From contig CM097883.1 in the NCBI GenBank assembly GCA_044892505.1, forward strand, positions 189,348,323-189,412,000: a stretch of 63,678 nt of DNA. Reading direction: 5' to 3'. This document shows positions 35,171 to 55,197 of the stretch, in pieces; within the stretch, counting starts at the first letter, position 1, and each line of letters begins with the position of its first letter. The notes beneath the pieces were generated by a model. That model was not told the DNA's origin. It saw only the letters and a program-made list of their open reading frames with translations, and did no database searches. A program made the translations under genes and the position numbers. The DNA comes from Schmidtea nova. Taxonomy: Eukaryota.

Positions 35171-35377
35171 AGTTCATATAAAAACAAATTCCTCTATTCA
35201 CAGAATGGACTAGTGAAGAAAAGGACGCATTTGATAGAAACAGGCATATGGCCAGGAGAGGTGACAACATTATCGATATGCGATGATAAGAGAGAAGAGA
35301 ACCTACAAGAAGTAGCAAAGGAAGCAAATATGTGTTTCGAGAAGAAGATAAAACCACGGTTAGAATATGAGAAAGGA
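34961..35377 (+). repeat. Exact 207-bp direct duplication (34961-35167 and 35171-35377) separated by an in-frame TAA
   Basis: Direct comparison; period 210 nt. Confidence 0.95.
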
Positions 35378-35911: not shown

Positions 35912-38611
35912 CAACAAATAGTAGACATTTATCGAAATTGGCGGATTTGGCCAGAATGGGAAGATGTATTAGAAGAACTCAATCTCAACAGACGATTACT
36001 AACACCCGTAGAAAAGAAATGGAACGAACGAGGAAAATGTTGGGAACCAAAAGCAGGCGAATACGAAGAAGAATATGAAATGGGCATAGAAGACGATCAC
36101 AAACCGGAAACCGGAAGAGTCTGTATGGTAACAAGAAAAGCCATGCCAGCGGATTTAGACGGACCAGAAACGGCAACCATGTGGTTGGAAAGAGAGAAAC
36201 AAAAAACGGAAGAATTTGTCGAAATATTAAAAACCAATGCGCACGGCAAGAGAAAAGTAGTAAAAGGTCTCGCAGATTTTTTCGTAGTTAATGGAGAAGA
36301 CATAACATGCTTGCGTAAAGTAGCAAAAGCAATCGCCGAATACAAAAGAGTTAACGAGTGGTGTCCAGAACAATTGGATCACGTAATTAAAAAATGGAGA
36401 AACCAAGAATTCTCGCAGGAATCACCACAGAAAGTACACCTAAGAATAGTATATCCGAACCAAGAAAAGGAAGAATTTTGGGTAGGAATAGCGGAGAAAG
36501 TCCGAGACATTAAAAAGAAATTGAGATACGAACCACCATTCCATTTACAACACCAAGGACGATCATTAGATAACAGCTTGGAAATTGGAATAACGCCAGC
36601 GCAATTAGATATCGCAAATACATTGACAGTGGCAGCAATAGCAGGCCAACCATTGAAATTGAAAGAGGAAAAGAAACCAAAAGGAAGTATGAGTACGCCG
36701 AGCCCAATGAAATCTGTAATGACTCCAGGAACAAGCTCAGAACAAGCTAGAACAACACCAAGAGAGACAAGAGAAAGAACACCACCAGAACCATACGATG
36801 TAGACGAAAATTTTACAGATAGCGATGATATGTTAGAGGAGTTAATAGAGCTAACAAAAGAGAAAGATGATAATATTTTCGAAAGAATTCAAGAATTACC
36901 AACAGCAATACCGGTAACCAACACCGAAGATGAAGTTGAACAAGAAATAATCATCGAAGAAGTAAATGAAATAGCAGAAGAGGAAGCAAGGAGGGCAAAT
37001 GTAGAAAATGTACAATTCACACAAGAAATGGAAAGATGGTTAGAAGAAAGAGCCAATGAACCAAGAGACGTCACAGAAGAAACGGGACGAGAAACAAGAT
37101 TAGTAGAAACGGGCACGACAATGGACAAACGACCTAGAGGTAGACCCAAGATGGATCCAGCAAATGTAGTTATAAAATCAAGAGAGGAAAAAAGACGGGA
37201 TCAATGGGATTTGTGTCTAAAGAAACTAAATAAAATAGCCGAAACGAAAGAAAAAGAAACAACACAAACATACCAAGGCGAGGAATGGATATCAAAGATG
37301 TTAATGGAAATACTGGCAATAATCGATCCGGAATTAAAGAAATGGTGGAGAATAAACGAAATAAGCGAAAGGGCGAAATCACTGCATAGCGCCATCGCAC
37401 CAATCCTACCAGAACTAATAAAAGAGAAGACAATGTCAAACCACCTAGATTGGCAAGGAACCACGATGTTGATAAAGAAGTTAACGGAAGGAGCAGAGAC
37501 GGATAACAAATATTTAATAGCTATGGCATACACCATTTACAATCTGTTGACACTGAGTAGAGGTCGACTGAAACCCACAGCACTCGAAAGACATATAAAG
37601 AATACAGCCAAAATTATAGAGAAGGAAATAGAACCGTACATCATCAGTAAAGGAGGATGGGAAACATTCACAAAAACGAACCAAAAGAAAAACCAAGCCA
37701 AAAATATGAAAAGGAAATTCGAAGAGATATTGGGAGAATTGGAAAAGGAAAAGTCGGGAACAGGAAACGGGAAATCATCACTAAACTTGAGTTCTATCAT
37801 TATGATGATGTTAATATGGATGATTAGTACTGACGGAGCAACAGCATTTGAAGTATTCGATTGTGATCAAATGGCATTAGGTGAGAAATATTCACTACGA
37901 GGGACAGAACAATGTAAGGACGCAACCCCAACGGAGCTAAAAACATTAAAAAAGAGACAATTATACCACGTATATCAGGAAGCTGAACTGATAAGAACAA
38001 TGGTCAGAGAATGCAAAGTTTATAAAACCAGATTTGCTTTTTATTGTGGGCACCGCCATTATTCAGCAATCGTGATGCCAGGAACGGAAAGAGAATCGGT
38101 AATGCTGCAAGGAGAAGACTGTGAAAAATTATTCAAACATGGAGAAGTAGAGACTAGAGATAGAGTAAAGATAAGAGGAAAAACGGGAGTAATATTACAA
38201 CAAACATATTATGTAGCAGGAGCTATTACGGGAGGAGAAGGGTACTGCCAAGGAGCAACATATCCAATATTCGGAGTAGCAGCAACAAACCTAGTGGTAA
38301 TAGATACGTATACAGTGGAACTAAAAACGTACGAGGCATTCTTCGATCCAACGACGGGAGAAATGAAAACTCTACCTATGTGCAAAATCGAGTCAAACAC
38401 TTGTCAGACTGGTATGTCAACCCTAACCTACCAGATACGAGGAAAGGAATGTCAACTACAATTGCTAAAAGAAGCAGAATTCGACGAGATACAAGGGAAA
38501 ACCTTCCAAGAGGAAGAAGAAGACGAGGCAGCAAGAGGAAAAATACTTCAAGACACCGTACGAGGAGAGAAAAAGATCGAAATACGAACACAAGAAAACA
38601 AATTAAAATGA
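35912..38611 (+). CDS. Polyprotein segment: Ubl-like domain, AT-hook, Bcl-2-like domain, signal peptide, N-half of chuvirus-like glycoprotein
   Basis: The frame is open directly after TAA 35909-35911 (ORF-track start 36080). Motifs: KRPRGRPK; EIEPYIISKGGWETF; IIMMMLIWMISTDG followed by FDC...ECKVYKTRFAFYCGHRHYS. Confidence 0.8.
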   Translation, partial: QQIVDIYRNWRIWPEWEDVLEELNLNRRLLTPVEKKWNERGKCWEPKAGEYEEEYEMGIEDDHKPETGRVCMVTRKAMPADLDGPETATMWLEREKQKTEEFVEILKTNAHGKRKVVKGLADFFVVNGEDITCLRKVAKAIAEYKRVNEWCPEQLDHVIKKWRNQEFSQESPQKVHLRIVYPNQEKEEFWVGIAEKVRDIKKKLRYEPPFHLQHQGRSLDNSLEIGITPAQLDIANTLTVAAIAGQPLKLKEEKKPKGSMSTPSPMKSVMTPGTSSEQARTTPRETRERTPPEPYDVDENFTDSDDMLEELIELTKEKDDNIFERIQELPTAIPVTNTEDEVEQEIIIEEVNEIAEEEARRANVENVQFTQEMERWLEERANEPRDVTEETGRETRLVETGTTMDKRPRGRPKMDPANVVIKSREEKRRDQWDLCLKKLNKIAETKEKETTQTYQGEEWISKMLMEILAIIDPELKKWWRINEISERAKSLHSAIAPILPELIKEKTMSNHLDWQGTTMLIKKLTEGAETDNKYLIAMAYTIYNLLTLSRGRLKPTALERHIKNTAKIIEKEIEPYIISKGGWETFTKTNQKKNQAKNMKRKFEEILGELEKEKSGTGNGKSSLNLSSIIMMMLIWMISTDGATAFEVFDCDQMALGEKYSLRGTEQCKDATPTELKTLKKRQLYHVYQEAELIRTMVRECKVYKTRFAFYCGHRHYSAIVMPGTERESVMLQGEDCEKLFKHGEVETRDRVKIRGKTGVILQQTYYVAGAITGGEGYCQGATYPIFGVAATNLVVIDTYTVELKTYEAFFDPTTGEMKTLPMCKIESNTCQTGMSTLTYQIRGKECQLQLLKEAEFDEIQGKTFQEEEEDEAARGKILQDTVRGEKKIEIRTQENKLK

Positions 38612-41600
38612 GAAATACACCAACGGTACTAATTACCTCAGATGCAGATATCGGAATGAGGTTTGTAAAAGGAAAAACAGCTTTGAAATGCGGAGTAGCC
38701 ATGTTGGAAACCAACTACCCCGGCATTTTTGTATCAAAGCAAGAAGTACCTAGAGCGAAACGCAAAGTGCACACGAACGATGTTAAATTACACCTGTACA
38801 TGAACAATAAAATGGATTTTCTATTCCATAGAGGACAAGCGTCACTACAAAAAGTGTATTACGATTTAATAAATAACGATTGTATATTAAATAGGGAAAT
38901 ATTAAAGACAAAACTAGCAGTAGCAATCACAAACCCGGATAGTGCAATGCCACTATTACCATTAAGAGAAGGTCATTTTGGAAGAGTAGTCGGAGAGGTC
39001 ATGTACGTATACATATGTAAAAAGACAAATGCGAAGGTAGCGACAATGACAAAACTACAACCAGGTCAGTGTACTAACGAACTAGAAATCGAATATAAAG
39101 GGAAAGTAAGATATGTACAACCAGTGACAAGAATCATAAATCCAGTAAGTTTCGAACCAAACCCTTTCAATTGTAGCAACGCATATGGACCACTATACCA
39201 AAAACCAGACGGAAATTGGGTTATGTTTCCGTCAAGAACAGAGGTACCAGCACCAAGGGAATTTGAATTGATGCAACTATCAAAAGGGCGAAAATTCAAA
39301 GACGTAGATGTAAGTAATATGGGATTCTATAGCGCAAAAGACTTAGAGGCAGCGAGACAAAACATACTATTTCCAGCAAGAAGGGAAGCGGTGTTATCCA
39401 GCATTGTAACAATAACAGGAGGAACAAATTACCAAGGTGGACCAAATTACGAATTATTATTGTCACCAGCCCACTTTAAGAAGGCAACGGAAAACATGAT
39501 GAAAGCGATGTGGGGAAGATTTTTAATATTTGGACAAATGATGGCAGGAATACTTGGTGTTATACTAATTATACAAATAATACGGGTAATAATAACGCAA
39601 ATGTTAGCCTGTTTTGACATCTATAAACGAGAAAAGAAAGTAAATTGGAAATTGGTGGTAGGATTCTTACCATTTCTGGCTAAAACAATGGTATTACACG
39701 GTCATTCAAAAGATATTCACCGAATAAAGAGACTCCTAAAAATACTGGCAAAAATGAAAGGAACCGATGAAGAGGTGGGACGAAAATTTAAAAAGATAAT
39801 GAATAACGAGCAAGCAAGACAACGACTCAAGAAAGAGAGAAAAGGACTATGGGAAAGAATGAAAGGGTACAGAACCCAAGACGATTCCAGTGACGACGAT
39901 GATGATGATAACGAAGGAGGTCAAGTATTTAAAAACCAAGTACCAAAGTACGTCGAAAAGAATCCAGCGGAAATGTGGAAGTGTTACGCACCCCCACCAA
40001 CCATGTACCAAGAACCAACACCAGGGATGAGACAAAATACAATGCAAATGATGCCGATGACAAACATATATCCTATGATACCAGAAGACTATAGAACGAG
40101 ACGGTGCAGAAGCGTAGATCCGCAAGGAGACTCACATACAATTGCAGTAATGTCATCAAACACCGGTCCAGTATTAACTACAACAATCGAAATTAACGGA
40201 AGGGAAATTGAAGCGATGATTGATACAGGAGCAAATATCTCAGCAATAGATATAAAATGGATACCACAAGAACAAAGACGGGATATTGAGAGAACCAACG
40301 TTCACGTAATAGCATGCAGTAAAGAAGTAGTAGAAGTTGCCGGAAGATGGTGGGTAAAGATAAAACATCAAAACACGGAAATCGAAACGTACGTAGCAGT
40401 AATACCAGCACTGAGCGTACCATGCATTATAGGCACGGATCTGATGCCAGCATTATTTAAAGAAATAGTTATTGACCTCGGAACAATGAGATTAAAGGAT
40501 AGGACAGGACAGATATGCGCAATAGAAGCAAAAGTAACAAGTTCGAAACAAATAATCGTACCAGCACGGAGAGAGAAAATATGCTTCGTAAAAATAGATC
40601 CTACAATAGAAGGTGATATGATCTTTGAACCCAGTAAAAGATTTGAAAAGAGAAAGTCGTTGCCAATGGCAAGGGGATTAGTGAGTGCGAATGACAACGG
40701 AGAAATCCCAATAAATGTAGTAAATTTCGATGAAGAGGATAAAATAATTTATGAAAATGAAAGACTAGGTAAACTAACTCCAATGATGGATATCGAAATA
40801 CCAATAAAAGAAGGAGTAAAAGAGGAGGAACCCACCTGGAACATTGATAGCCAACTACTAAATGAGGATCAAAAGAAACAGCTAGAAAGGTTACTGATGG
40901 AATATAAAGACATATTCGCAGCATCCGATTTAGATCTAGGGACATGCGACGTCACACTACATACGATTCCACTAACAGACGAAACGCCTATTGCGTTAAG
41001 ACCATACAAGTTAGCTGAAGCGCAAAAATCAGTAGCAGAAGCAGAAGTACAGAAAATGCTAGACGCAGAAGTAATTGAACCAAGCTGCTCACCGTGGCAA
41101 TTCCCAGTTGTAATGGTGAAAAAGAAAGACGGAACACAACGGTTTTGTATTGATTATCGGAGATTAAATGCGGTAACAAAAAGGGATACATACCCATTAC
41201 CAGACATCAACGAGATGTTATTGACATTACAAGGAGCGGCATACTTTACATCATTGGATTTGAAAAGCGGATACTGGCAAATTAAAATGAAAGAGGAAGA
41301 CAAAGAGAAAACTGCTTTCACTATCGGAAGAGACTTGTACCAGTTTAGGAAAATGCCATTTGGACTAACCAATGCGCCAGCATCATTTCAAAGATGTATG
41401 AATTTCGTTACCCACGGCATAAAACAATGCATGGTTTACATTGACGACCTACTGATCTACTCAAGCACATTTGAACAACACATCCAAGATATCAGAGATG
41501 TATTTGTTAGATTGAGACAATGGAAACTCAAGCTCAAACCATCGAAATGCGATTGGGCAAAGGAGAAAGTGACATTCTTAGGACATATTGTGTCCGCAAA

Positions 41601-42843
41601 AGGAAAGGAACCAGATCCCAGAAACATTGATAAAGTAAAAGAATGTCCAGTACCAAAGACGATAACGCAGATCCAAGAATTTCTCGGATTATGCGGTTAC
41701 TATAGAAAATTCATAAAGGATTACGCAGGAATTGCAAAACCAATCCAGGAGCTAGTAAAGAAAGACGTATCGTTCATATGGGGAAGCGAACAACAAACAG
41801 CCTTCGAAACATTACGAGATAAGTTAATAACTGTACCAATATTGGTTCACCCGGATTTCAAGAAGCCATTTTTACTCGCAACCGACGCAAGTGGATATGC
41901 AGCAGGAGCAGTGTTAGGACAATATGATGACGAGGGAAAAGAGCGGGTAAACGGATATTATAGCAGAACATTCAAGAAACACGAGAAGAATTATTCAGTA
42001 ACGGAAAGAGAAGCATTGGCAATAATATTAGCAATAAAACACTTTAAATATCTATTATGGGGACACGTTATATGCATAACCACGGATCATCAACCACTTG
42101 TATGGCTAGGACAACATAAGGAAACATCCAGCAGATTAATGAGATGGGCGATGCAATTACAAGAATATTCACCAGATATAAAATTCAAATCAGGGAAAGC
42201 GAATGCCAACGCAGATTGCATGTCAAGATTAACGTTTCCAGAACTAACAGACCCAGAAGTGCAAAGAATATGCATAGTGATAGCAGAGGATTTGGATTTC
42301 AGCGAGTTAAAGAAAGATCAGCAAGAGGATAAAGAACTAAGACCCATCATAGAATTCCTAAGCTCACGGAATATGGATGTATTCAAAGACAATACGGAGT
42401 TAAAAGAACACATGAGGAAATACCAACATCGATACACAATAGAAAAAGGATGGTTGTTAATACAAGATGGAGAAAAACGATTAATGTGTCTGCCAGGTAA
42501 TAGACGAAAAGAGATAATAACTCAATACCATGACGGAAAGTTGGGAGGACACATGTCCGATAAGAAAACATTAGATCGCATGAGACAAAAATATTATTGG
42601 CCAACAATGGACGAAGACGTAAAGGAATGGATAAAGAACTGTTTAACTTGTGCCACAAGAAAGGATAGTGGGAAGAAATGGAAAAATCCCTTAAAACCCA
42701 AGCCGATACCAGCAGAACCAATGACTACCATTGCAATGGATGTAATAGGACCATTGCCAGAAAGTTTAAACGGGAATCAATATATATTGGTAATAACGGA
42801 TTATTTGACTAAATTCCCTGAAGCATTTGCGATGCCGGATTAA
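38380..42843 (+). CDS. pol: C-half of the glycoprotein (with TM) fused in frame to Pol: protease, RT, RNase H, integrase zinc finger
   Basis: PR MIDTGANIS (40222); RT FCIDYRRLN, PFGLTNAPASFQR and YIDD (41437); RH LATDASGYAAGAVL; IN HDGKLGGH...CLTC and MDVIGPL. Ends at a TAA where the consensus has Gln (MPD*KAKTVA). Confidence 0.96.
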   Translation: MQNRVKHLSDWYVNPNLPDTRKGMSTTIAKRSRIRRDTRENLPRGRRRRGSKRKNTSRHRTRREKDRNTNTRKQIKMRNTPTVLITSDADIGMRFVKGKTALKCGVAMLETNYPGIFVSKQEVPRAKRKVHTNDVKLHLYMNNKMDFLFHRGQASLQKVYYDLINNDCILNREILKTKLAVAITNPDSAMPLLPLREGHFGRVVGEVMYVYICKKTNAKVATMTKLQPGQCTNELEIEYKGKVRYVQPVTRIINPVSFEPNPFNCSNAYGPLYQKPDGNWVMFPSRTEVPAPREFELMQLSKGRKFKDVDVSNMGFYSAKDLEAARQNILFPARREAVLSSIVTITGGTNYQGGPNYELLLSPAHFKKATENMMKAMWGRFLIFGQMMAGILGVILIIQIIRVIITQMLACFDIYKREKKVNWKLVVGFLPFLAKTMVLHGHSKDIHRIKRLLKILAKMKGTDEEVGRKFKKIMNNEQARQRLKKERKGLWERMKGYRTQDDSSDDDDDDNEGGQVFKNQVPKYVEKNPAEMWKCYAPPPTMYQEPTPGMRQNTMQMMPMTNIYPMIPEDYRTRRCRSVDPQGDSHTIAVMSSNTGPVLTTTIEINGREIEAMIDTGANISAIDIKWIPQEQRRDIERTNVHVIACSKEVVEVAGRWWVKIKHQNTEIETYVAVIPALSVPCIIGTDLMPALFKEIVIDLGTMRLKDRTGQICAIEAKVTSSKQIIVPARREKICFVKIDPTIEGDMIFEPSKRFEKRKSLPMARGLVSANDNGEIPINVVNFDEEDKIIYENERLGKLTPMMDIEIPIKEGVKEEEPTWNIDSQLLNEDQKKQLERLLMEYKDIFAASDLDLGTCDVTLHTIPLTDETPIALRPYKLAEAQKSVAEAEVQKMLDAEVIEPSCSPWQFPVVMVKKKDGTQRFCIDYRRLNAVTKRDTYPLPDINEMLLTLQGAAYFTSLDLKSGYWQIKMKEEDKEKTAFTIGRDLYQFRKMPFGLTNAPASFQRCMNFVTHGIKQCMVYIDDLLIYSSTFEQHIQDIRDVFVRLRQWKLKLKPSKCDWAKEKVTFLGHIVSAKGKEPDPRNIDKVKECPVPKTITQIQEFLGLCGYYRKFIKDYAGIAKPIQELVKKDVSFIWGSEQQTAFETLRDKLITVPILVHPDFKKPFLLATDASGYAAGAVLGQYDDEGKERVNGYYSRTFKKHEKNYSVTEREALAIILAIKHFKYLLWGHVICITTDHQPLVWLGQHKETSSRLMRWAMQLQEYSPDIKFKSGKANANADCMSRLTFPELTDPEVQRICIVIAEDLDFSELKKDQQEDKELRPIIEFLSSRNMDVFKDNTELKEHMRKYQHRYTIEKGWLLIQDGEKRLMCLPGNRRKEIITQYHDGKLGGHMSDKKTLDRMRQKYYWPTMDEDVKEWIKNCLTCATRKDSGKKWKNPLKPKPIPAEPMTTIAMDVIGPLPESLNGNQYILVITDYLTKFPEAFAMPD

Positions 42844-44793
42844 AAAGCAAAGACCGTAGCAAGAATTTTAGTAGAGGAAATATGTTGTCGATACGGAACC
42901 CCGAAACAAATACTAACAGATCAAGGAACAAATTTTATGAGCGAAATACTAGATGAAGTAACAAATTACTTCAGAATAGCCAAATTACGAACGTCACCAT
43001 ATCATCCGCAAACCAACGGACAAACGGAAAGATTTAACGGCACATTGATTCGAATGTTATCCAATTATGTAAGCAAACACCAAACAGATTGGGATGAATA
43101 CGTAAAGCTATGTCTAATGGCATACCGAATGTCGATACACGCAGCAACAAAATTGAGTCCATTTCAATTAATGTATGGAAGGGAATGCAATATGCCAATA
43201 GATCTTGAATATCAACCACCTTTGTCTCAATATATGGAGGAAGATGATTACGTCACCAAATTCAAAGAACGAATGCAAGAGATATGGAAGACAGCAGAAC
43301 TAAACATAAAGTTTTATCAAGAAAGTTACAAGGACCTACACGATCAAAAGAAAAATGTTAAAACAAATGATCTTAAACCCGGAGATTGGGTAATGATAGA
43401 AACCCCAGAAATAATACCAGGAACCGTTAAAAAACTACAAAGACCAGGAAAAGGCCCTTACGAAGTTATATACAAAAAGGAAAACAATGTGAAGGTAAAA
43501 CTTGTTAATCGACCATTGATACGACCAATATACGTTAATACATGCAGATGTAAGAAAGTACCAAAAACAATAACCACAGCGCCAGAAGAACGAATAATAA
43601 CCAGATCCCAGACAGCCAGAATGAATATGCTCAGAGCAACCAATGAAAGTACCGAAGCAGAAAACAATCAACAAGAAAAAAGAAACAAGGAAATGGTACT
43701 AAAAGCCAGAGAAATAATGGGAAAATGGCATGTCAGAGACGATATATTAAGAGATATTCAGTCGATAATTAGTGATTACGCAAGGGGACTACCAACAAAA
43801 CCAGTCATTTCAGAACTACTGGAAAAAATTCCAGAAATACTTTCACTAGAAGACATAGGAGGACAACCAGCATTACATAACGCCATAAAATGGGGAGAAG
43901 TAGAGAGAGTAAAAGAATTTCTAAAAATCGCTAAGGAAACAAACCAACACCTTGGTTTTGGGAATAGCGAACAAGAAACACCATTAATGGTAGCAGCCAT
44001 CTACAAATCGGATAAAGCAATAATAGACGTTTTGATAAATGCCGATTTCAACTGGACGGAACGCGATAGAGAAAACAAAACAGTCTTGAATCACGCAATA
44101 TGGAGCTCAAATCAGATAATGCTCAAACAAATAATCGAGAAGGCCACTTGGGAAATAGACGAACTGATCAAAGGTGATATAATCAAGGAGGCAATAAAAA
44201 TCGGTAACTGCAAAACAATACGCAAGCTAATAAAATGGAAAAGATCCGAAAATGATACATGGGTGTTAAATATAAACGAGGTATACAGTGAAGGGCAAAA
44301 CACGTTATTACAATTCCTATTAAAATTAGTTTGTGATCAGAAAACACTGTTAATATTATTGGACAGAAGAAATATTACAATTTCCAAAAACAAAGAGGAG
44401 TGTAAATTCGAAAGTGAAAAAGAAGCATTATTCAGGAAAATTAGGGAATGGTGTGCAAAATCGCTAACCAAGACGATGACTTACAAAGATATATCCAATT
44501 TTCAAGATAAATACAAAACGGTGGAGGAAGAGTATGACAAACTAATAGACATATTAAACCACCCCGAAAAATGCAAACAATTCCTATGTCAAAAGGAAAG
44601 AGAAAGCAAAAGGAAATTTACACCACTTTTCAGCGCAGAGGTACCCTATCAAGAAAGGTTAGATGCGATACAGGACAAAGCAAAAGAACTATTACCAGAA
44701 TTCGAAAATTCTAAACATACACTGGAGATACTCGGATCAATTGTGGAAAGGTACACGCATATGCGGAAGGGACTTACAATGAAAACGATATGA
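42844..44793 (+). CDS. Integrase core and GPY-like C-terminus followed by ankyrin repeats
   Basis: Same frame as pol. ILTDQGTNF, TSPYHPQTNGQTERFN and KGPYEV, then GGQPALHNAIKWG, ETPLMVAAIY and KTVLNHAIW. Confidence 0.9.
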   Translation, partial: KAKTVARILVEEICCRYGTPKQILTDQGTNFMSEILDEVTNYFRIAKLRTSPYHPQTNGQTERFNGTLIRMLSNYVSKHQTDWDEYVKLCLMAYRMSIHAATKLSPFQLMYGRECNMPIDLEYQPPLSQYMEEDDYVTKFKERMQEIWKTAELNIKFYQESYKDLHDQKKNVKTNDLKPGDWVMIETPEIIPGTVKKLQRPGKGPYEVIYKKENNVKVKLVNRPLIRPIYVNTCRCKKVPKTITTAPEERIITRSQTARMNMLRATNESTEAENNQQEKRNKEMVLKAREIMGKWHVRDDILRDIQSIISDYARGLPTKPVISELLEKIPEILSLEDIGGQPALHNAIKWGEVERVKEFLKIAKETNQHLGFGNSEQETPLMVAAIYKSDKAIIDVLINADFNWTERDRENKTVLNHAIWSSNQIMLKQIIEKATWEIDELIKGDIIKEAIKIGNCKTIRKLIKWKRSENDTWVLNINEVYSEGQNTLLQFLLKLVCDQKTLLILLDRRNITISKNKEECKFESEKEALFRKIREWCAKSLTKTMTYKDISNFQDKYKTVEEEYDKLIDILNHPEKCKQFLCQKERESKRKFTPLFSAEVPYQERLDAIQDKAKELLPEFENSKHTLEILGSIVERYTHMRKGLTMKTI

Positions 44794-47762
44794 TGATCAT
44801 AAAAAGAGAAATGCCAGTGACTTTCTTATTAACAAAGAATGGAGTATTGCCAATACATAGAGCCTTACGAGCAGGAAAAGATAGGAGGGTAGTCGAAATT
44901 GCACGGTTGATGCAAGATTGCGGAAGTGACATGAACATGAAAGATAAAAAGGGAGATACCCTCATGATATTCGCAGCAAGAGCGAACACAAAAACCCGAG
45001 TGTTACAGGAACTGTACGAAGCAGGTGCAGGACTCATGGGAAGAACTAACAAAGACAGCTCAATACTAGACGTAGCGTTGTTAGCGCACAATTGGGAGGT
45101 GATAAATTTCATAAAAACAATCACAAATCAGGAGGAAATAGAATACCTTACAAGGACAGTTAAAAAAGCTAGCGTACATTCCATGATGCATAACGCTGAA
45201 CTAACTGAAGCAATACTCAATTGGATGAACCCAAACACCAATGAACCAGCATTCAGGATCAACGAGTGCATGGAACAAGGCCAAAATTTGTATATAAAGT
45301 GTGCATTAATAATAAACAAATGGCCAAAGATAATAGATATCTTCATGAGAAGAAAAGATTTACGATTCACAAACCACCCAAAGGAAACAGAACGTACGGA
45401 CAAATGGAAAGAACTAATGAAAACGTACCTCAATAATTGGATAAAAGCCAAGAAAGAGATTCTAGATTGTAAATTAACCGATAAGGAAATACCTAAGCAG
45501 GCAGAAACACAAGAATATGAAGCAAGTATACTCACAACCATAACGTATGAAAAAATGATAGAAGCAATTAATGTCGAGGACGACATTTTCAACGACCAAA
45601 GGGAAGGCGACAATACAGGAAACGACGACGATAGTACTCGAGAAAATCCAGAGGATCATGAGTTATCAGATAAAGAGGACAGTGAAGAGAAAGGAAGGGA
45701 CACAGAGAAAAATGATAAGAACAATGAATTTGGGAAACAAAGAAACAACAACTATAAAAATAAAAACGAAATAAAAAGAACAGGCTACAAACAAACAATA
45801 AACCCATTCTTTAAACCAGAACTATTATTACTAACGGTAATCATGACCTTAATTAGTCCAACTCAAGGAATGATATGTGAAGAAAGAGCGACAATACAAA
45901 TTGGAAACGCAAAAGGAATCGAACGAGTATGTTGGTCAAAAAAGGACAAAATATCGGGACAAAATAGTCCAATGGATTGCAAGATCTCAGAATACGAACA
46001 AGAAATCATAGAGATCGATGACCTAGAGCTAGATACTTGGTACAGAATGTGCACCGTTCGGAAACCAAAGGATCCGAGATCACATAAGACAATTGCATGT
46101 GCAAACTACCTAACGCCCAAAGTAACCATAACAATACAGCAGTCATCCAAAGGAGACTATGTTGTAGGAAAGTGTGGAAGAACAGAGACACAAGGAACAA
46201 AAAACAAGAAACCCCAGACAATAGACAGACGAACAACGCCAACTATACGAATTACCATAGACAAGCCCGAAGCAAGAGTAACCACAAACGAGACCGAAAG
46301 AGTGACTTACCAAACAGAATTACTATGTTTAGCACTCATATTAACAATGTTAAAACGGTTAGAAGAAGGGATAGACATTGACACAATGGCAGTAACAGAG
46401 ATGAACGACACCCAAAACACCAACCCAAAGTGTTATGCCAGAAGCAACGAAGAAATTGGCGTAAGCGAAATAAAGACGAGTCGGAAAAGGGAAACAAATA
46501 AAGTAACCAAGATATCAGAAGTAAAAGCAGACAGGACGTATGAACTATGTTTACTAGAAAAAGAAAGACACAAGAAAGGAACGACAATTTGTAAAACATT
46601 TCAACCTGGGGAAACAATAAAGTTCATAAGAAGAAGAAGAAGAAATATACGCACCAAACGGAGGACAACTACAATGTTAGAGTTAACCGGAATAGAACCG
46701 GACGTCAAAGGCGTATGCTGGAAGAAGCAGGAAAAGAAAACAAACCAGAATACACCGCCGCAATGTCGAACAAACAGAGGAACAACCACAATACAGATAG
46801 AAGGGTTAGAAAGTAATCAAACGTACGAAATATGCCTGATCAGGAAGAGCGACAAAATAACAGTAAATGAACTGGAATGCAAAATATATAAAACACCCAC
46901 CAGAACAAAAATTGGAAAGACATCGCGAAAAAGCAGAAGACAACGGAACAAAGGAAAAGCGAGGTATACCACTACTTTTAAACCTAATGGACAACAGAAA
47001 AACCAAGAAATACAAATAAAAACCGAAAAGAATACTACAGCAACTCTTATACTATGGAGAATAGACAATAAAACGTTAGAAATATGTTGGGTAATAGTTC
47101 AGAAACAAAGGGAAAGACAGCCACGAGACTGTGGAAACGTGAAAGGAAAAGAGGAAATAAGTATCAGGAACCTGAAATTCAATAGCGAATACGAGATATG
47201 TGCGATAGAAAAGACGGACATATTGGGAAATCAGCAGGAAAGATGCGAAACGTACTACACACCGGTAAACTCAACGTCCAAAGGGAAAGTGAGAAAACTC
47301 GAATTTAAAGAATTAAGTCAGACAACGAAACAAATGGACGCGGAACAAGTAGTAATAGACCCTTACGCAAGATGGACGCCGGAAGAAGTAATTAAAGAAG
47401 TTAAAAGAAAACAACAAGAACGAGAACAACTACTAAATAAACTAAAGGGACAATACGGACCAATGATTAACCAGAGTGAAATTACGAAGATGGACGTAAA
47501 CAAACAAGTTAGAGAACTAATTGGTCTAGGAATACTAGCAGCAACTATTCCAGTAATAACAGTATTATTAATAATATGGATATATGATGTATTCAACAAG
47601 AAACCAATAACACATTGGCCAGATATAAAGATTATGAACTACAGTATAGAATTACCGGAAGAAGTACATAAAGAATTCCAAAGGAGGACGAAAGGTAAAG
47701 AATTTTGGAGACAAATAGAAGATGAAGAGCGATACGAAGGAAAGACAGTGATGGTGATATAG
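44790..47762 (+). CDS. Ankyrin repeats plus internal signal peptides, FN3-like repeats and a C-terminal TM helix, 990 aa
   Basis: ANK: VLPIHRALRAG, GDTLMIFAARAN, SSILDVALLAH. Repeated ..CW.....C....I.I.GL....YEIC units. TM LIGLGILAATIPVITVLLIIWIY. Confidence 0.75.
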   Translation: MMIIKREMPVTFLLTKNGVLPIHRALRAGKDRRVVEIARLMQDCGSDMNMKDKKGDTLMIFAARANTKTRVLQELYEAGAGLMGRTNKDSSILDVALLAHNWEVINFIKTITNQEEIEYLTRTVKKASVHSMMHNAELTEAILNWMNPNTNEPAFRINECMEQGQNLYIKCALIINKWPKIIDIFMRRKDLRFTNHPKETERTDKWKELMKTYLNNWIKAKKEILDCKLTDKEIPKQAETQEYEASILTTITYEKMIEAINVEDDIFNDQREGDNTGNDDDSTRENPEDHELSDKEDSEEKGRDTEKNDKNNEFGKQRNNNYKNKNEIKRTGYKQTINPFFKPELLLLTVIMTLISPTQGMICEERATIQIGNAKGIERVCWSKKDKISGQNSPMDCKISEYEQEIIEIDDLELDTWYRMCTVRKPKDPRSHKTIACANYLTPKVTITIQQSSKGDYVVGKCGRTETQGTKNKKPQTIDRRTTPTIRITIDKPEARVTTNETERVTYQTELLCLALILTMLKRLEEGIDIDTMAVTEMNDTQNTNPKCYARSNEEIGVSEIKTSRKRETNKVTKISEVKADRTYELCLLEKERHKKGTTICKTFQPGETIKFIRRRRRNIRTKRRTTTMLELTGIEPDVKGVCWKKQEKKTNQNTPPQCRTNRGTTTIQIEGLESNQTYEICLIRKSDKITVNELECKIYKTPTRTKIGKTSRKSRRQRNKGKARYTTTFKPNGQQKNQEIQIKTEKNTTATLILWRIDNKTLEICWVIVQKQRERQPRDCGNVKGKEEISIRNLKFNSEYEICAIEKTDILGNQQERCETYYTPVNSTSKGKVRKLEFKELSQTTKQMDAEQVVIDPYARWTPEEVIKEVKRKQQEREQLLNKLKGQYGPMINQSEITKMDVNKQVRELIGLGILAATIPVITVLLIIWIYDVFNKKPITHWPDIKIMNYSIELPEEVHKEFQRRTKGKEFWRQIEDEERYEGKTVMVI

Positions 47763-47887
47763 GAGGCGGGATATGACTGTAAATAATAGTGTAAATAACA
47801 ATGCATTACCGTAATAGTATGGGTATCGATATTATAAAAATATAAAAAGAGAAATCGAGAAAACGATTAATGTATATAATTTAGAAA

Positions 47888-48244
47888 ATGAACGAACAGG
47901 AAGAAATAGCAGAAACTACTATGGCTATGCGATGGAAAGCCCAGTGTGACATGTTAATACGAACAATCAACTCACTACAAAATCAGTTAATTGAGAAACA
48001 GAATTTGTTATCCGAAAGTTATAATAATAGTTTTGAACAACTCCACAGAATCGAGGAGCAACAGAGATTGATAACGCAACTTACCAGAGAGAATCAAGTG
48101 ATGAGCGACATAAATCAGAGACAAGCAATAGAGATAGACCGTTTAACAATGGGAGAGACAGAAGAAGCAGAGGATGGATGGACAAATTGGGCAATAAACA
48201 GATCAGAAAATGACCCAGAACCAGATTCAACAAACGAGCCGTAG
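47888..48244 (+). CDS. Small coiled-coil accessory protein, 118 aa
   Basis: ATG-initiated, heptad-rich, flanked by AT-rich spacers, AATAAA just after the stop. Confidence 0.7.
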   Translation: MNEQEEIAETTMAMRWKAQCDMLIRTINSLQNQLIEKQNLLSESYNNSFEQLHRIEEQQRLITQLTRENQVMSDINQRQAIEIDRLTMGETEEAEDGWTNWAINRSENDPEPDSTNEP

Positions 48245-48335
48245 ATAAATAAAGCGAAAAATTGTAAATATGTAAAAACAAAAACAAGAAAAATCAAAAA
48301 ATAGATAACAAATCAAGTGTATATATCATTGTAGA

Positions 48336-49718
48336 ATGAATACAGAAGGAAAAGCCGAAGAGCGGATAATCGAAATTTTGAGAGCCGAGAACAGGAAATG
48401 GAGTCAGAGACTCACTTGTGTAAATTGTAAAAACATAATATTGAAACCAAGACAAACCCTATGCGGATGCAGAGTATGTACCAAATGCATACACGAGTTA
48501 AGTATGAAAAGACCACCAGAATGTCCAGAATGCAAAGAAGGACAAATAAAATTCGAAGAAACCGGACCAGATAGAGCAACTCAGAGAGAAATCATGAACA
48601 CGAAAACCGAATGTATAAATCAACCATGTATATGGCAAGGACAAATACGCGATCTCGAGAACCATCTGGAGAACTGCGAAGAGAAGAGAACTGAATGTAA
48701 CAAATGCCAACAAAAAATAACTATAAAGAATAAAGAGCAGCACAAAGATGAATGTAAAGAAGAGGAAAGTCTATGCGAATATTGTGGAACTCGAGAAACG
48801 AGGAGAAAGATCGAAGAAGAACACCTGAATGTAAAAGAGGAGAAAGTATGTAGACAATATGTAGGAATATGTTCAAACGAATGCGATATAACGGTAGAAG
48901 TAAAATTACAAGAACATTGGAAAGTGTGCACGGAGAAACCAAGGGAATGCCCTTATAACAAACAGGGATGTATGGAGAAAAGAACGCAAAAAACCATGAA
49001 ACAACATCTGGAGGAAGCATTGCTAAAGCATGCGGAAATGACAAACGAAGCAACAAAGGAAACCGAACAAACAATCAAAAAATTAGAAAGAGAAATAGAG
49101 TCACACAAGATAATGGTAAACCTACTGTTGGAAACCAGAGAGCAATTCGAACTAACACGAGAAAAGATGGAGGAAAAGATAAAAGCTATCGAAGAACTGG
49201 CTAAAGGAATGAAAATCCAGTACAACAAACTCACCCAGGATACCGAGGAAAAGTTACCAATCGCACCATATGTGTGGAAAGTGACAGATTTTAGAGACAA
49301 ATTAACAGAGGCCAGAAATATGACGAAAACAGCAGTAATAAGCCCACCATTTTATTTATGGAGAAACGGAGCTAAAGTGAGATTGAAGCTATACCCAAAT
49401 GGAGACGGAAGAGGACGAGGAACACATGTGTCAATATTTTTCTCGCTATGTAAAGGAGAATACGACGACCTAGTAGAATGGCCCTTGAAAGTAGGAGTCA
49501 TTGTAAGAATCAGAAGTGTAACAAAACCAGTAGAAAAATTCTTTGAGACAGAGAAACATGCGAGTACGAGCGAGAAACCAACCACAGAATGTGGATTAGC
49601 AGCGGGAGAACCGATGTTTATAACGAAAGAAAGCCTATGGGAACGATTATATGCAGACACCCTATACATAGAAATGGAAAGGAATGAGAAAGCGGATAGA
49701 AAAGGATGGTTGACGTAA
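48336..49718 (+). CDS. Full-length intronless TRAF-like protein (RING, TRAF zinc fingers, coiled coil, MATH/TRAF-C), 460 aa
   Basis: RING CVNC...PRQTLCGCRVCTKC...CPEC; C.N..C.W.G...LENHL..C; TRAF-C YVWKVTDF...SPPFY...LKLYPNGDGRGRGTHVSIFFSLCKGEYDDLVEWP. Confidence 0.93.
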   Translation: MNTEGKAEERIIEILRAENRKWSQRLTCVNCKNIILKPRQTLCGCRVCTKCIHELSMKRPPECPECKEGQIKFEETGPDRATQREIMNTKTECINQPCIWQGQIRDLENHLENCEEKRTECNKCQQKITIKNKEQHKDECKEEESLCEYCGTRETRRKIEEEHLNVKEEKVCRQYVGICSNECDITVEVKLQEHWKVCTEKPRECPYNKQGCMEKRTQKTMKQHLEEALLKHAEMTNEATKETEQTIKKLEREIESHKIMVNLLLETREQFELTREKMEEKIKAIEELAKGMKIQYNKLTQDTEEKLPIAPYVWKVTDFRDKLTEARNMTKTAVISPPFYLWRNGAKVRLKLYPNGDGRGRGTHVSIFFSLCKGEYDDLVEWPLKVGVIVRIRSVTKPVEKFFETEKHASTSEKPTTECGLAAGEPMFITKESLWERLYADTLYIEMERNEKADRKGWLT

Positions 49719-49831
49719 CCAGAAAAGTGATCATGTAAATAATATGTACAGTTAAATACCCAAAAATTATTATATAAACAAAAATAACTGATATATAAAC
49801 CGATTAAAATTTTCATTCTGTAATTATAGCA

Positions 49832-50892
49832 ATGGGAAATATCGAGGTATGCTTACAGGAAATTACGATGCATCAAGCAGAAGCGATTAGCGATCATCTA
49901 GAACAGATTGAAATATGGGTCAATGCATATTATGGAAAGCAAGAGGAGATAGAGAGACAAGCCGAATTATTAAAAGAAGCGGAAAGATCAAGTCAAAGAA
50001 GTCGAGAAAAAATAGAAGAAGTATACAAAATGCTACAACAACAAAAGGAATATTACCAGAGAATGATGAAAGAGCGACGAGAGGAAAGAGACAGACAGCA
50101 GATGGAAGCTGAACACAAGATGTATTCGATTACAGAACAAGCAAGATACTGGAAGAAAGAAGCGAAAGAATCTTACGAAAAAGCTAGAGAAATAATAGAA
50201 AGGACAGCTTATAGTGATGACTGGAAGTTATATAAAGAGATCGATGAACTAAAAGACGAGTTAGAACAAAAAATCAACCAGGAAGTGTTAAATAAAAGAT
50301 GGAATACAAAAAGACAGCAATTTATCCGCGAACAAGCAAAGAAAATTAAAGGACTAACCTATCAAGTTCAAAGAATGGGAGAAGAACTAGCTAATCAAGA
50401 ACAACTGAAAACTATGCTCACCGGAATATGGAATCAGAAAGAAGAAGAGATGAAGAGAGATATAAATGGTTATCAAGGGGTGATTACTCAAAAGAAAATA
50501 GAGCTAAAAAGAACCAGGGAAAGGTTAAAGGAAGAGAAACAAAGTTACGAGGAAAATTAACGAATTTGATGAAAGAAAACGAAGAATTGAAACAGAAACG
50601 AGTAACAGTATCAGTAATACCCAAAGAAGCAAGTATAACGGCAGCCGTAACAAAAATGATAAAAGAAGACGAACAAAAGACAAAAGTAATCGAATTAGAG
50701 AAACAAATAGAAACATTAACAGAACAAGCAAATTACCTAGAATATTTGCTAGACGAGGAGATCCAGATATCTCACATGTATCGAGATGAAGTCGAAATGT
50801 GGAGGAGCAGGGTTGTTTGGATACCACTCCCCACGAACCAAGTAGAGCCTCAGGACGAAGGTTTCTATGAACCAAATGAGACGATTGTGTAA
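49832..50892 (+). CDS. Long coiled-coil accessory protein, probably one gene split by a -1 frameshift near 50553
   Basis: ORFs 49832-50560 and 50428-50892 join (YEEK|LTNLMKENEELK) if one A is added to the run gaggaaaattaa. Confidence 0.65.
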
Positions 50893-50973: not shown

Positions 50974-51546
50974 ATGAAAAAGCTCAGAATACCGATATTC
51001 CTATACCTAATAACAATCACCCTACAAAGAGAAGATCTTCAACTCACAGAGAAGGAGCTACGAGCCCTACCCGAGAAAACCTATCAAGAGCTAGATAAAC
51101 TAATCGGCGAAGCAACACAAGAAATCACCCAACTTCAACAGATAACATTAGACAACCCAAACGACGAAAAATTTCAACAGGTCCTAGATGAACATCAAAT
51201 CAAATTGAAAGCAATCAGAAAAACCCTAAAAGAAGGTCGAGAACCCATAAAAAGCTTAGCCCAAGCAGAGATAGAATATCAAGAAAAATGGATCATCGCA
51301 ATTATAATAATCCTTGCACTCAGCGTGACCATTATCGCGATCACAATCCTCATAACATCATACCGAGTGAAGATCTTAAAACAAAAACATGTCATCCTGA
51401 ATCGAACAACAATACAAGACATCAGAACCCAAAAGCGAATGAGAAAACACCTAAACCGAATCCAAAGCCACTACGAACTACGAACAATCAGCGAAAGAAC
51501 CCCAATCCAATCCAATACCAATCATGAAATCAAAGAGCTTGTGTAA
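50974..51546 (+). CDS. Small type-I-like membrane protein (hydrophobic N-terminus, coiled coil, TM, basic tail), 190 aa
   Basis: MKKLRIPIFLYLITITL...; TM WIIAIIIILALSVTIIAITILIT; basic cytoplasmic tail. Confidence 0.7.
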   Translation: MKKLRIPIFLYLITITLQREDLQLTEKELRALPEKTYQELDKLIGEATQEITQLQQITLDNPNDEKFQQVLDEHQIKLKAIRKTLKEGREPIKSLAQAEIEYQEKWIIAIIIILALSVTIIAITILITSYRVKILKQKHVILNRTTIQDIRTQKRMRKHLNRIQSHYELRTISERTPIQSNTNHEIKELV

Positions 51547-51750: not shown

Positions 51751-53060
51751 TGTTGGGCCAGCCAAATAGAGGGAACAGTGAAATAAAAGTAGATTAATTA
51801 AAACAAAAAAGAGAAAAATAAGATAAAAAGGGGAATATTTATTTATTAAAAGAAAGGAGTAATATAATAAAAATATAGATAAACTAAGTACAAGCTATAA
51901 ATAAAAATAAAGGAATTTCGAGATATTAACTGGCCCAGGAGACATCTAAAAAACAAAATAAATACAAATAATGGTAATTAAAACAAAATAAAAGTACTTG
52001 TTATTGAATAATTGTTTTTGAAACCCAGACCTCCGAGGAAGAATACAATCTAAAAAATAAAAATTAATTAGAATCAAGAACAATAATTAAAAACCACCCT
52101 GAAAATGGCCGAACCTGATTGGTCGGTCTAGACACGACTGATCAGTATAAATACTGATCAGATTTTTCATAAAATCAGACGTTTTGACTAGAGTGAGACT
52201 TTAGTAGACTTTGTTAGACTGAAATTTAGACTTTAACTAAAAATTCGCATTAGATTGTACATTGCCCCGACGACGATCACCGTTTAGACCGATTTTGATC
52301 AATAAATTTTCAGAATTCAATTGAGGTATTTTTGGTATATTTACGTTTATGATATCGTTGTATTCGTATGTCATTATCATATTATAATTTATTAGTTATC
52401 TCATTTTGATTTATGTTATATTTAAACTATTTAATCTATCATATTAATCTCGCGCCGTTGGGAGCTTTAGGTTCCCAAGGTGTCCGTCCGTGGCGTGGTG
52501 CTCGAGGGCTCCACACACGGTAAAGTAATAAATAGTAAAGCATAATTTTATTAGTAGTGGTTGAGACTTGCACATGGGACACCCAACAAATCCGGGGAGT
52601 TATTTTCCGATCATTTTAGCTACAGAGGGGACGATAATTTTTTGATAAAGCTTAAAGATATGAAAGAATTCTTTAACCGTGGGGAGGCACGAATTGTTGC
52701 TAGATAAACGTCTAATAAACCTTAGAAAATTAGGTCGACCGCATTTGGTACAAAGGAGCGTTTTTTCGAATAAGCTAGGGATACATGACGGGAGAGAGCT
52801 TCCGTTTTGAGGTATCAATATTTTGAAAATCCAAGCAGACAAATCACCATTTTTTCAACTATAATATTGATCGTAAACAGATAAAGCTAAGTAGATACGA
52901 GAGTAATGCATACCGTAACGAACGACAGTTTCTCTTGATTTCAGCTAAGGTCTAAGGGGAAGGCAAATAATAAGGGTATCACGATGAGAGATAACATTTA
53001 CTATGATTAATTATTGATGTAAATTGTAACTATTATAAAATTCAGCATCGTTTTGGAATC

Positions 53061-53528
53061 ATGACTAAGCATAGATACACTATCAAAAAACGACAAGAAC
53101 GAGCCCGAGTTAGCCCATTAAAGCCGGCTCCTTTCGAGATTTTACAGCAAATCCATCAAAAAATGTGGGCATGGCGCCGAGAGCTTGAAACCGCCTGTCC
53201 ATTTACAGTATGGGACCATCCACGGCACCATGTATGGTACCGGGGATGCGCTAGTTGGCCAATCATTCCAGATGAGGAATTCGAATCATGGCACGCCGCC
53301 TGGTTCGTTCTGATGCTAGATCAACGAGGATTCCCGAAATGCGTGATATATTGGGGGTTCATTCCAGCCTCTACCTTCAAGGAATTGGGGTTCAAGTTCA
53401 ATACAGCAATACGACCCCTTCGGGAAGCTGAGAGGATCCGTTTTCAGCAGGCCTCGTCCAATATCAACACAAATTTGCAAATTAAATCGATATTTTCGTA
53501 TCGGGGAAAAATGACCGGAGATGGATAA
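53061..53528 (+). CDS. LTR-encoded ORF A, 3' LTR copy
   Basis: Identical translation to 27630-28097. Confidence 0.6.
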   Translation: MTKHRYTIKKRQERARVSPLKPAPFEILQQIHQKMWAWRRELETACPFTVWDHPRHHVWYRGCASWPIIPDEEFESWHAAWFVLMLDQRGFPKCVIYWGFIPASTFKELGFKFNTAIRPLREAERIRFQQASSNINTNLQIKSIFSYRGKMTGDG

Positions 53529-53846
53529 TTGAATAAATGGCCACCTATTTTTGAATTTAATAAATGTTTTAAAGAAGTCTGAAGTGTCTCATTTTGTTAA
53601 TAGTGTTGTCATGTAGATTTAGTATTGTAGTTGTTATAGTCATTAGGAAATTCATTTATTAATACAAAATTAGTTCAATAAACCTTTTGAGTCTTCAATG
53701 GTTAGATAGTTAAATACTTTTGTAAAGAACTCGATAATTAAAAACATTAGTATACATCTCGTTTAATAATAATAAAGAGTAGACTAAATAAAATAACATT
53801 GTTGATAGGTCCTCCAGCGAATTTATCGTTATAATATTCAGACAAC

Positions 53847-54431
53847 ATGCCGACTACCGAAAATTCCAAGAAAATCATGGGACAAATCCAAGAAAGGAAG
53901 TTGAGGGACCAGCAGCGACAGATCAAGCGACTCACGGTCGCCAATGATGAATTAAGGGCGAAGTGGTTCTCGCCCGGACAAATGAAGGACCAGTCGAAAA
54001 AACTTGAGCGGATGCAGGAAGCACTTGCCGCAACCAAATTGGAACTAGATGCCGTCCAGCGGGAACTCCGAAATTGCCTGAACGCAGTAACAAGAAGTTA
54101 CCTCGACTCCGAATTGCGAGCGCTAATCCGGCCGATCACGGCTCAGCGCTGGATACAATGCACTCACCAAGATGTCGCTTGCGGGACAGAAGATGATATC
54201 ATCATGGCACCCACTCTTACAACGGAAGATTTGCCTATTTTTCTCAGTGATCCCCCGAGAATAATAGCGTCAGCACCGGTCATAAACCAACAGCTTCGAA
54301 AACATCGAATGGGATCGCGACAGCGCCGTCGTCGCCGAGAATTTGCAAAGCGCCTGGACGAACAAATCCACCACCTGAACTCCTTAACCGAAGCAGAGTT
54401 AATCCAGGAGATTAGCCTGGAGCTTGAATAG
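53847..54431 (+). CDS. LTR-encoded ORF B, 3' LTR copy
   Basis: Identical translation to 28416-29000. Confidence 0.7.
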   Translation: MPTTENSKKIMGQIQERKLRDQQRQIKRLTVANDELRAKWFSPGQMKDQSKKLERMQEALAATKLELDAVQRELRNCLNAVTRSYLDSELRALIRPITAQRWIQCTHQDVACGTEDDIIMAPTLTTEDLPIFLSDPPRIIASAPVINQQLRKHRMGSRQRRRRREFAKRLDEQIHHLNSLTEAELIQEISLELE

Positions 54432-55197
54432 GAAAACCTCAATGTAAAATAACAACCTGTCTTTATTATTTTAATAAAAGTATTACTGTGTAAAATTTTT
54501 CTCTCATCGTGTGAATTCACTAAATAAAATAAAATAACAATAGCTAAATCCTAGAAGTAAAAAATCGCAGCCGCATTTTCTCAAACCGACCGTTTCTACG
54601 CAGGGACTGATTAATTACATTGTAGATCAATTAAGGAAAGTCGTTGGGAAAAGCGTATGATAGATCATAAGGATATGTAATACAAAATGCAGTAAGAAAC
54701 GAACATCCATAGAATGTAAATGCGTAAGACCTTCTATCGGCAGCAAGGACCCGAGGGAAGATAAATGGGGAGTAGTTTTGGCAACAAAGCTCACCTGCCC
54801 ATCATTTTTCCACCACCGTATGCAGTACCAACTTGGCTAGTAGGGAATAGTCAAGGGCATACGCGTGTAGTAGTCATGTTATGTATGGTTATGGGCGTGG
54901 AATCCCTAGTATACGTACTCATCAACAGTCGTTCAATTAATGATTAACTATTTATTTGAATTACTTAAAACCCACCCATAATCCCAGCAATTTTATGATA
55001 ATTGTTTCCCCTTAGTCAGATTGGTTATTATTATTGTTATCATTATTGCTTTTACTATTATTGCACTCGGAATTCTCCCTTCAACAGATCTTCAAACATT
55101 AATTACTTCTATTCAATATAATTATAAATTACTTAATAAAATAAATAATATTTTAATAAATTGTAGAACTATTTAAATTTTAAAAAGTTTATTTTAG

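Follow-up and report, generated by a model that had tools for sequence, protein, structure and literature searches.

The window, as the 63,678-nucleotide stretch of Schmidtea nova DNA analysed here is called, contains a giant Burro-type Gypsy retrotransposon, and within this element, downstream of pol, lies a complete TRAF gene. There is very little doubt that the gene is selected cargo of the element. The explanation that best accounts for the observations overall, that an intact and selected TRAF is carried as an active adaptor and likely ligase favouring survival of the host cell, seems on balance probable, by a modest measure. Its functional step, an active adaptor or ligase favouring host-cell survival, is argued by analogy and, taken separately, falls just short of an even chance.

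The element that encloses TRAF is a 28,670-bp LTR element (about 28.7 kb; positions 26320-54989) with the following components.

26320..29558, + strand: 5' LTR, 3,239 bp, TG...CA, with the target duplication ATTT on its 5' side
29888..30349, + strand: accessory ORF of 153 aa with a C-terminal IAP-type RING (zf-C3HC4_3); YAG 3 nt ahead of the ATG
32132..47762, + strand: polyprotein region with gag (CCHC), env-like, PR, RT, RH, IN, ankyrin and a membrane tail, from Pfam and the frame list
47888..48244, + strand: small accessory ORF, 118 aa, coiled-coil-like; its position is kept in families A, B, C, E and F
48336..49718, + strand: TRAF ORF, 460 aa, without interruption; Pfam, PDB matches, AlphaFold model and Foldseek
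49832..50892, + strand: coiled-coil accessory gene, in two frames in the window copy, ending in ETIV
50974..51546, + strand: accessory ORF (orfTM type), 190 aa, with a hydrophobic N-terminus and a second hydrophobic stretch
51751..54989, + strand: 3' LTR, 3,239 bp, with the target duplication ATTT on its 3' side

The preliminary description had proposed that TRAF is retroelement cargo. Indeed the gene lies between paired LTRs, 3' of gag, env-like, PR, RT, RH, IN and ankyrin sequences, as the second of four small genes that follow pol and ankyrin. Pfam places an env-like Monjiviricetes fusion region (mononegavirus-like; PF24664, E 2.5e-51) before RVP, and Ank_2 after rve. The insertion is recent, because the two LTRs, bounded by a 4-bp target duplication (ATTT), differ at only 2 of 3,239 bases. 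The polyprotein of the window copy is broken into six frames, by in-frame stops ending at 35170, 35911 and 42843 and by changes of frame around 38.2-38.6 and 44.7-44.8 kb. Since a broken polyprotein accompanies LTRs that differ at two positions, it is likely that the element was mobilised in trans, or else the breaks are assembly errors. A 207-bp tandem duplication (34961-35377) is also present in this element, whose polyprotein is broken at five places despite the near-identical LTRs.

Each LTR contains two ORFs (27630-28097 and 28416-29000 in the 5' LTR) with homologues in other families. Neither has a Pfam match; the second has an arginine-rich tail. A BIR was suspected by eye in an LTR ORF and received no support from Pfam, which matched no BIR or BCL2-like motif in the frames of the window or the LTR ORFs that were tried. 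Beginning 6 nt past the 5' LTR, a G-rich word (window 29559-29585) resembles a tRNA-Pro primer-binding site. Tandem-repeat arrays with 30/31-, 41- and 42-55-nt units occupy 30761-31633, in the leader that separates gag from the RING ORF. In the flanks, frames at 8863-10650 (- strand) and 4201-4779 (+ strand) appear by eye to be degenerate Tigger-like and hAT-like DNA-transposon transposases.

The Burro/GYPSM1 elements of planarians are giant Gypsy-like elements of more than 30 kb, with long LTRs, a polyprotein of about 5,000 aa, and BIR and BCL2-like motifs (PMC6431247). The window element, near 30 kb in size, is of the same class, although its 28,670 bp with 3.2-kb LTRs fall just below the quoted >30 kb. 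It shares with them long LTRs, a CCHC gag, ankyrin repeats, MATH/TRAF-C cargo and, placed between gag and PR, an env with a mononegavirus-like fusion region. TRAF-C cargo in Burro elements is thus already known: PMC6431247, the sole report of it in the literature searched, describes MATH_TRAF_C both in S. mediterranea, where it is part of ORF1, and in D. tigrina, where it lies in an accessory ORF upstream. In contrast to the published Burro, the window element has a whole RING-bearing TRAF as a separate ORF downstream of pol, and no BIR match in Pfam. That review is silent on a TRAF RING, on tests of selection and on motifs in spacers. A full RING-bearing TRAF, its selection and the spacer cassette were not found in the literature searched; the figures or supplements of Grohme 2018 and Lee 2026 may show the whole ORF.

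The TRAF ORF runs as a single unbroken frame of 460 aa from the ATG at 48336 to the TAA at 49716-49718, and the following features were located in it.

48417..48533, + strand: RING finger (residues 28-66), eight cysteines (C4C4), with CGC replacing CGH
49020..49238, + strand: coiled-coil helix (residues 229-301), 73 residues, pLDDT mostly >90 in the AlphaFold model
49269..49682, + strand: TRAF-C/MATH domain (residues 312-449), from Pfam, the model and the pocket alignment
Residues K351, Y353, F368, V390, F403, A409-S410-T411, S412 and E425, + strand: pocket positions, from the TRAF3 alignment

In sequence and predicted fold the ORF is a member of the TRAF family, with a RING and zinc fingers, a coiled coil, and a C-terminal TRAF-C domain; the claim of a complete intronless TRAF is upheld for all four parts, in one frame, by Pfam, PDB alignment and the model. 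TRAF-C is matched by MATH_2 (E 6.6e-21, residues 312-447) and by TRAF-mep_MATH (E 1.8e-18). The zf-TRAF match (E 8.4e-5) lies under the curated cut-off in the window copy and above it in a family B copy. The RING has no Pfam match in the window copy; residues 21-115 align to the solved RING regions of TRAF2/5/6 (E 1.5e-9 to 1.8e-7), and all eight metal ligands are present. An AlphaFold model built on a 94-sequence alignment (mean pLDDT 93.2) predicts a helix at 229-301 and a beta-sandwich at 312-449; it replaced a single-sequence model of the coiled coil and TRAF-C with a pLDDT of 33. Its best Foldseek matches are the TRAF domains of TRAF3/2/5 (E 3.8e-17).

The window copy is one of many. Five sister families, A (that of the window), B, C, E and F, carry TRAF at the identical position after pol. 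When exact 20-mers common to the sampled copies of each family were used as TRAF-C markers, the genome contained 86 matches for A, 156 for B, 123 for C, 75 for E and 10 for F; reversed control 20-mers had none. The resulting 450 matches are a lower bound and refer to TRAF-C markers, not to complete genes. Element genes flank TRAF in 20/20 A, 20/20 B and 13/13 C copies, and stand beside it in all 11 further copies (6 E, 4 F and 1 B-like); RT, RNase H or integrase falls inside the 10-kb flank in 17/20 A, 17/20 B and 11/13 C copies. L103, one locus retrieved among the C copies, belongs to the host. Of the sampled copies, 5/6 E and 2/4 F (L139-L143, L144 and L146) have no RT, RNase H or integrase, and in them protease closely precedes ankyrin. 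Judged by their gene content, these copies are non-autonomous derivatives spreading with TRAF as cargo, and TRAF is open in those translated.

A sixth family, D, carries TRAF-C only, inside a polyprotein of about 4,990-5,006 aa that is intact at that length, and has 249 marker matches. This layout, TRAF-C within a polyprotein of about 5,000 aa, is that published for Burro1, and homologues of the downstream cassette are absent from family D. In total, at least 699 (about 700) element-borne TRAF-C markers compare with at least about 90 host-type loci found, 73 in one search listing and 17 more in another. The families and host loci account in part for some 2,400 first-look TRAF candidates in the genome.

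Selection on the cargo is evident across copies. Under the simple NG86/JC model, with dS between families near or at saturation and with copies picked as best TRAF-C matches, dN/dS of the whole TRAF between A and B is 0.124 (RING 0.19, zinc fingers 0.10, TRAF-C 0.13; pairwise NG86), within-family values are 0.18 for A, 0.11 for B and 0.10 for C, and the window TRAF compared with copy L057 gives 0.11 (bootstrap 95% 0.07-0.16). Values of about 0.1-0.2 denote purifying selection; the cargo is neither single-copy nor neutral, two outcomes that would have refuted the first reading of the gene. A dN/dS of about 0.12 therefore marks TRAF as maintained cargo. Over the TRAF-C region, dS between A and B is 0.44, against 1.1-2.4 elsewhere (window 49260-49715 compared with L051-L070), which suggests recombination between these families over TRAF-C.

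It is scarcely credible that TRAF is a neutral passenger, recently acquired and functionless. Its dN/dS is indeed several-fold higher than that of the pol domains (0.005-0.05), and 15/86 A matches are interrupted, the other 71/86 lying in an open frame of at least 467 aa without a stop in the match. Neutrality is contradicted, however, by the dN/dS of 0.11 with its upper bound of 0.16, by a frame retained between families although their TRAFs share only about 50% identity, and by a codon style that is fully element-like. Third-position A/T is 0.51/0.14 in the window TRAF and 0.48/0.20 in its own RH+IN; in the three element TRAFs measured, A is 0.44-0.54 and T 0.13-0.15, like their pol. In 30 host-type TRAF frames, A is 0.28-0.37 and T 0.26-0.43. 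The A-rich codon style shared with pol, noticed in the preliminary description, thus holds against host-type frames, and the long residence proposed with it is borne out by that style together with synonymous sites near saturation between families.

The origin of the cargo can be traced to the TRAFs of flatworms. A word-index protein search with the TRAF ORF returned 12 TRAFs, all distant; in a representative protein search the named top matches were triclad proteins, with D. japonica TRAF2-like A and D. lacteum TRAFs as the top single-unit matches. A careful full-length tree of 25 rows brings the TRAFs of families A, B, C, E and F together as a single clade (100/100), with the caution that the unusual amino-acid composition common to the element sequences can draw them towards one another. 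This clade is sister to proteins P0033 and P0073 (97/97) and nested in a 20-row triclad-type group (100/99) that also includes D. lacteum TRAF-2/4/5, D. japonica TRAF2-like A and host genes. The tree was rooted with five CGH proteins taken as outgroup, and it singles out no donor branch. The 25-row tree replaced a 33-row quick tree, from which 10 rows were dropped (including the long-branch L009, P0110, P0131 and P0061) and to which E and F were added. These sequence relationships indicate a capture that was likely a single event, with a member of the flatworm TRAF clade of the host itself as its source. For family D, TRAF-C groups with A/B/C in the best tree (96/86); an alternative grouping of D with five host genes (p-AU 0.149) was not rejected, and D may therefore share the capture of A/B/C or stem from a separate one. 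In other flatworms, P0033 and P0073 may be carried by related elements; a metagenome scan of their context gave 14 loci at 24-47% identity, none with element genes.

The resemblance to triclad host TRAFs, such as D. japonica TRAF2-like A (ADF47429.1), D. lacteum TRAF-2/4/5 and Smed-TRAF-2A/B (the last from the available portion of PMC7586133), extends to domain order, the CGC RING and a degenerate serine triad. The element TRAFs are 29-36% identical to these proteins and differ from them in forming their own clade, in their A-rich codons, in having serine or tyrosine at the F456 position, and in having mostly glutamate at the C469 position. The CGC in place of CGH to which attention had been drawn is therefore real and yet not element-specific: it occurs in 7/7 host full-length TRAF frames with a RING and in the named triclad TRAFs, as well as in 17/103 outside proteins matching the RING motif, of which 76/103 have H. 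At least seven host TRAFs are likewise single-frame from RING to TRAF-C, and thus 'intronless' is no mark of element cargo. Host TRAFs with both features rule out either one as an element-specific mark.

Could the host TRAF expansion itself have arisen by domestication of element copies? Such an origin would accord with the excess of element-borne TRAF-C markers over host-type loci, with the single-frame host TRAFs, and with first-look candidates that are accounted for only in part. The trees argue against it: host rows inside the element clade number 0/6 in the 25-row full-length tree and 0/21 in the TRAF-C tree, so that the phylogeny with host TRAFs, proposed at the outset as a check, runs one way, with element TRAFs inside triclad TRAFs and no sampled host gene inside the element clade. 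Host frames are also without A-rich third positions, and 63 of the 73 host-type rows are clustered on C2:405-455 Mb, some in tandem; in the one tandem-cluster gene examined, a GT...AG gap separates the RING frame from the TRAF-C frame. Domestication is accordingly rated as quite unlikely. Near the single-frame host TRAFs, no close Burro-type genes were found in five 10-kb stretches (L103, L105-L108), two of which had weak matches at 24-38%.

Rather, the host expansion looks separate from the elements and mostly confined to one chromosomal cluster. The suggestion that retroelement carriage explains part of it survives as a statement about counting, which is inflated by element copies (about 700 element-borne against at least about 90 host), whereas the host genes form an expansion of their own. 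Within C2:404-455 Mb, at least 60 host-type TRAF genes were seen, some in tandem 4-5 kb units and with highly variable pocket residues; from its sequence this is a candidate immune-type gene cluster. The host gene L005 groups with D. japonica TRAF2-like A in the 25-row tree, and from this the planarian TRAF-2A/B that have been tested are probably host-type and not element cargo.

The predicted receptor-binding pocket is divergent. The available text of PMC6125299 gives as TRAF2 hot spots F410, L432, F447, F456 and C469, the serines S453-455, and R393 and Y395. When these numbers are transferred to the window TRAF through the TRAF3 alignment, 4/10 are identical (Y395, F410, F447 and S454), and six are substituted: R393 by K, L432 by V, S453 by A, S455 by T, F456 by S and C469 by E. 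The changes at F456 and C469 are non-conservative, and residues that bind PxQxE/T are partly lost. The window TRAF has the fold and core TRAF-C residues of vertebrate TRAF2/3/5, including those at the Y395, F410 and F447 positions, and differs from them in CGC for CGH, in the K at R393, in A-S-T at S453-455, in the S at F456 and the E at C469, and in being shorter (460 aa). It falls outside the TRAF2/3/5 receptor-binding type and, with pocket residues partly lost, may not bind the usual receptors. The divergence noted earlier is thus real, but it is largely a trait of the host clade too, which has a degenerate serine triad and no C469: among 21 host rows, C469 is kept in none and the full serine triad in one. 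Glutamate occupies the C469 position in A, B, C and E, and asparagine in F. This pattern suggests a pocket specificity that has changed under constraint rather than decayed.

A divergent pocket might be expected of a dominant-negative decoy, one that joins host TRAF trimers or occupies receptors without signalling and thereby damps innate or stress responses to the element. The 73-residue coiled coil is intact in the model, and family D, which retains TRAF-C only, is a RING-less form. It is nevertheless unlikely that the cargo acts in this way, since five families retain both the RING and the zinc fingers under selection (dN/dS 0.19 and 0.10), and the CGC RING and degenerate serine triad, being shared with the host clade, are no signs of inactivation. 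The original proposal of a decoy or modulator is therefore narrowed: with eight metal ligands retained in a RING under selection, a decoy is not favoured over an active modulator.

A different possibility is that TRAF serves the element itself, as an adaptor or ligase for particle assembly, membrane trafficking or removal of restriction factors, binding the element's own membrane or coiled-coil proteins in place of signalling receptors. In five families it stands in a fixed cassette together with ORFs for coiled-coil and membrane proteins; an env-like gene is present in the element; and A, B, C and E all retain the glutamate at the C469 position. The coiled-coil accessory gene, split in the window copy, is unbroken in the B and C copies sampled, at 353-386 aa in one frame, and the 50974..51546 product is, from its sequence, likely a membrane protein. 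No TRAF-binding motif shared by the cassette C-termini of A, B and C was seen by eye, however, and family D does without homologues of the downstream cassette. An element-internal role is on this evidence doubtful. The C-termini of the coiled-coil accessory gene in the five families are ETIV, ETLV, ETDV, ESLV and ETIV (window 50428-50892; L126, L081, L150 and L153). They resemble a class I PDZ-binding motif.

Since 22 kb and several stops separate the TRAF gene from the start of the LTR, it needs, we infer, an mRNA of its own. The spacers around it are consistent with such expression.

47763..47887, + strand: spacer of 125 nt, with three TGTA(A/T)ATA motifs and an acceptor-like end
48245..48335, + strand: spacer before TRAF, 91 nt, with AATAAA, two TGTA(A/T)ATA motifs, a T-rich tract, and TAG one base before the ATG
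49719..49831, + strand: spacer after TRAF, 113 nt, with TGTAAATA and an acceptor-like end

The pre-TRAF spacer is conserved in families A, B and C, and the T-rich tract and TAG ahead of the TRAF ATG are nearly the same in all three (identical in 13/13 C copies) despite saturated synonymous sites. A YAG lies 0-4 nt from the ATG in 14/15 accessory ORFs of A, B and C, against 45/357 gag-pol ATGs. The rule is weaker in E and F, where both orfTM genes and the small ORF of F have no YAG within 4 nt; the E TRAF, which has an earlier ATG in the motif region, was left unscored.

The 12 spacers of A, B and C (73-125 nt), which are not independent because they are homologous across these families, contain TGTA[ACT]ATA 20 times, compared with 1.05 in 500 dinucleotide shuffles (maximum 4). 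The motif is confined largely to the sense strand, TGTA occurring 15 times and TACA once in four A spacers, and fits the Pumilio element UGUANAUA. All 12 spacers (47763-50973; L057, L126, L093 and L081) have 3-5 TGTA words, usually with TGTAAATA 12-21 nt past the stop. A similar motif pair directly follows the stop in host genes L004/L005, and TGTA[ACT]ATA was absent from the other 17 host flanks examined. A role for UGUA as a CFIm poly(A) enhancer is disfavoured, as planarian poly(A) sites without CFIm or UGUA enrichment are reported in the available part of PMC5068929. It is possible that the spacer motif is a DNA-level promoter motif, though it is one-stranded.

By these sequence features, TRAF would be expressed from its own processed mRNA, its ATG following a conserved acceptor-like motif, and Pumilio-type motifs in the spacers could confer post-transcriptional control. 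Spacers of about 100 nt would fit operon-style spliced-leader trans-splicing, although cis-splicing uses the same acceptor. In the flatworm Macrostomum, genes of spliced-leader operons lie about 100 nt apart, according to the portion of PMC8629364 at hand. The element cassette resembles such operons in having same-strand genes about 100 nt apart with an acceptor-like site before each ATG; it differs in sitting in a retroelement, where cis-splicing may act instead.

What the product does is suggested by its fold and by analogy. From the fold alone, TRAF would form a trimeric adaptor and likely ubiquitin ligase, and a retuned binding pocket would alter its partners. A pro-survival or immune-damping role is proposed by analogy with knock-down of host TRAF and with the anti-apoptotic IAP cargo of Burro1. 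RNAi of host planarian TRAF is reported to cause cell death and lethality (PMC7586133, in the part available), and the Burro1 IAP cargo to protect stem cells (Lee et al. 2026, as cited in the accessible text of PMC13465017). Because every domain, including the RING, is under selection, because host TRAF knock-down is lethal and because the Burro1 IAP is protective, an active, survival-favouring TRAF is the reading we prefer. Burro1 B-IAP (PMC13465017, same portion) is likewise a host-derived cell-death regulator within a Burro, and the window element also has an IAP-type RING ORF; B-IAP is a different gene with functional data, whereas for the window TRAF a role is predicted from sequence.

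Expansion of planarian TRAF/MATH genes has been described as 121 domains (PMC6109357) and as 282 contigs (PMC7586133); the available portions of both sources draw no link to elements, and those of PMC8532177 and PMC11410931 make no mention of TRAF. A planarian Pumilio is required for stem cells, as stated in the accessible part of PMC5855632. The most extended form of the proposal would have the elements run a spliced-leader, Pumilio-gated operon that delivers a working TRAF ligase from several hundred loci (about 5:1 over host TRAFs), supplies part of the TRAF/MATH transcript expansion, and helps stem cells to survive; in that full form we consider it improbable.

In this one genome, most of the TRAF-C copies found are element-borne and the host genes are a separate expansion; TRAF counts and RNAi designs must therefore separate the element and host sets. 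The anatomy of the spacers bears on how a 29-kb element expresses genes that are distant from its promoter. For a retroelement, a whole and selected TRAF, predicted to be an E3 ligase or adaptor, is unusual as an accessory gene; beside the IAP cargo already known, it suggests that survival or immune signalling is being manipulated.
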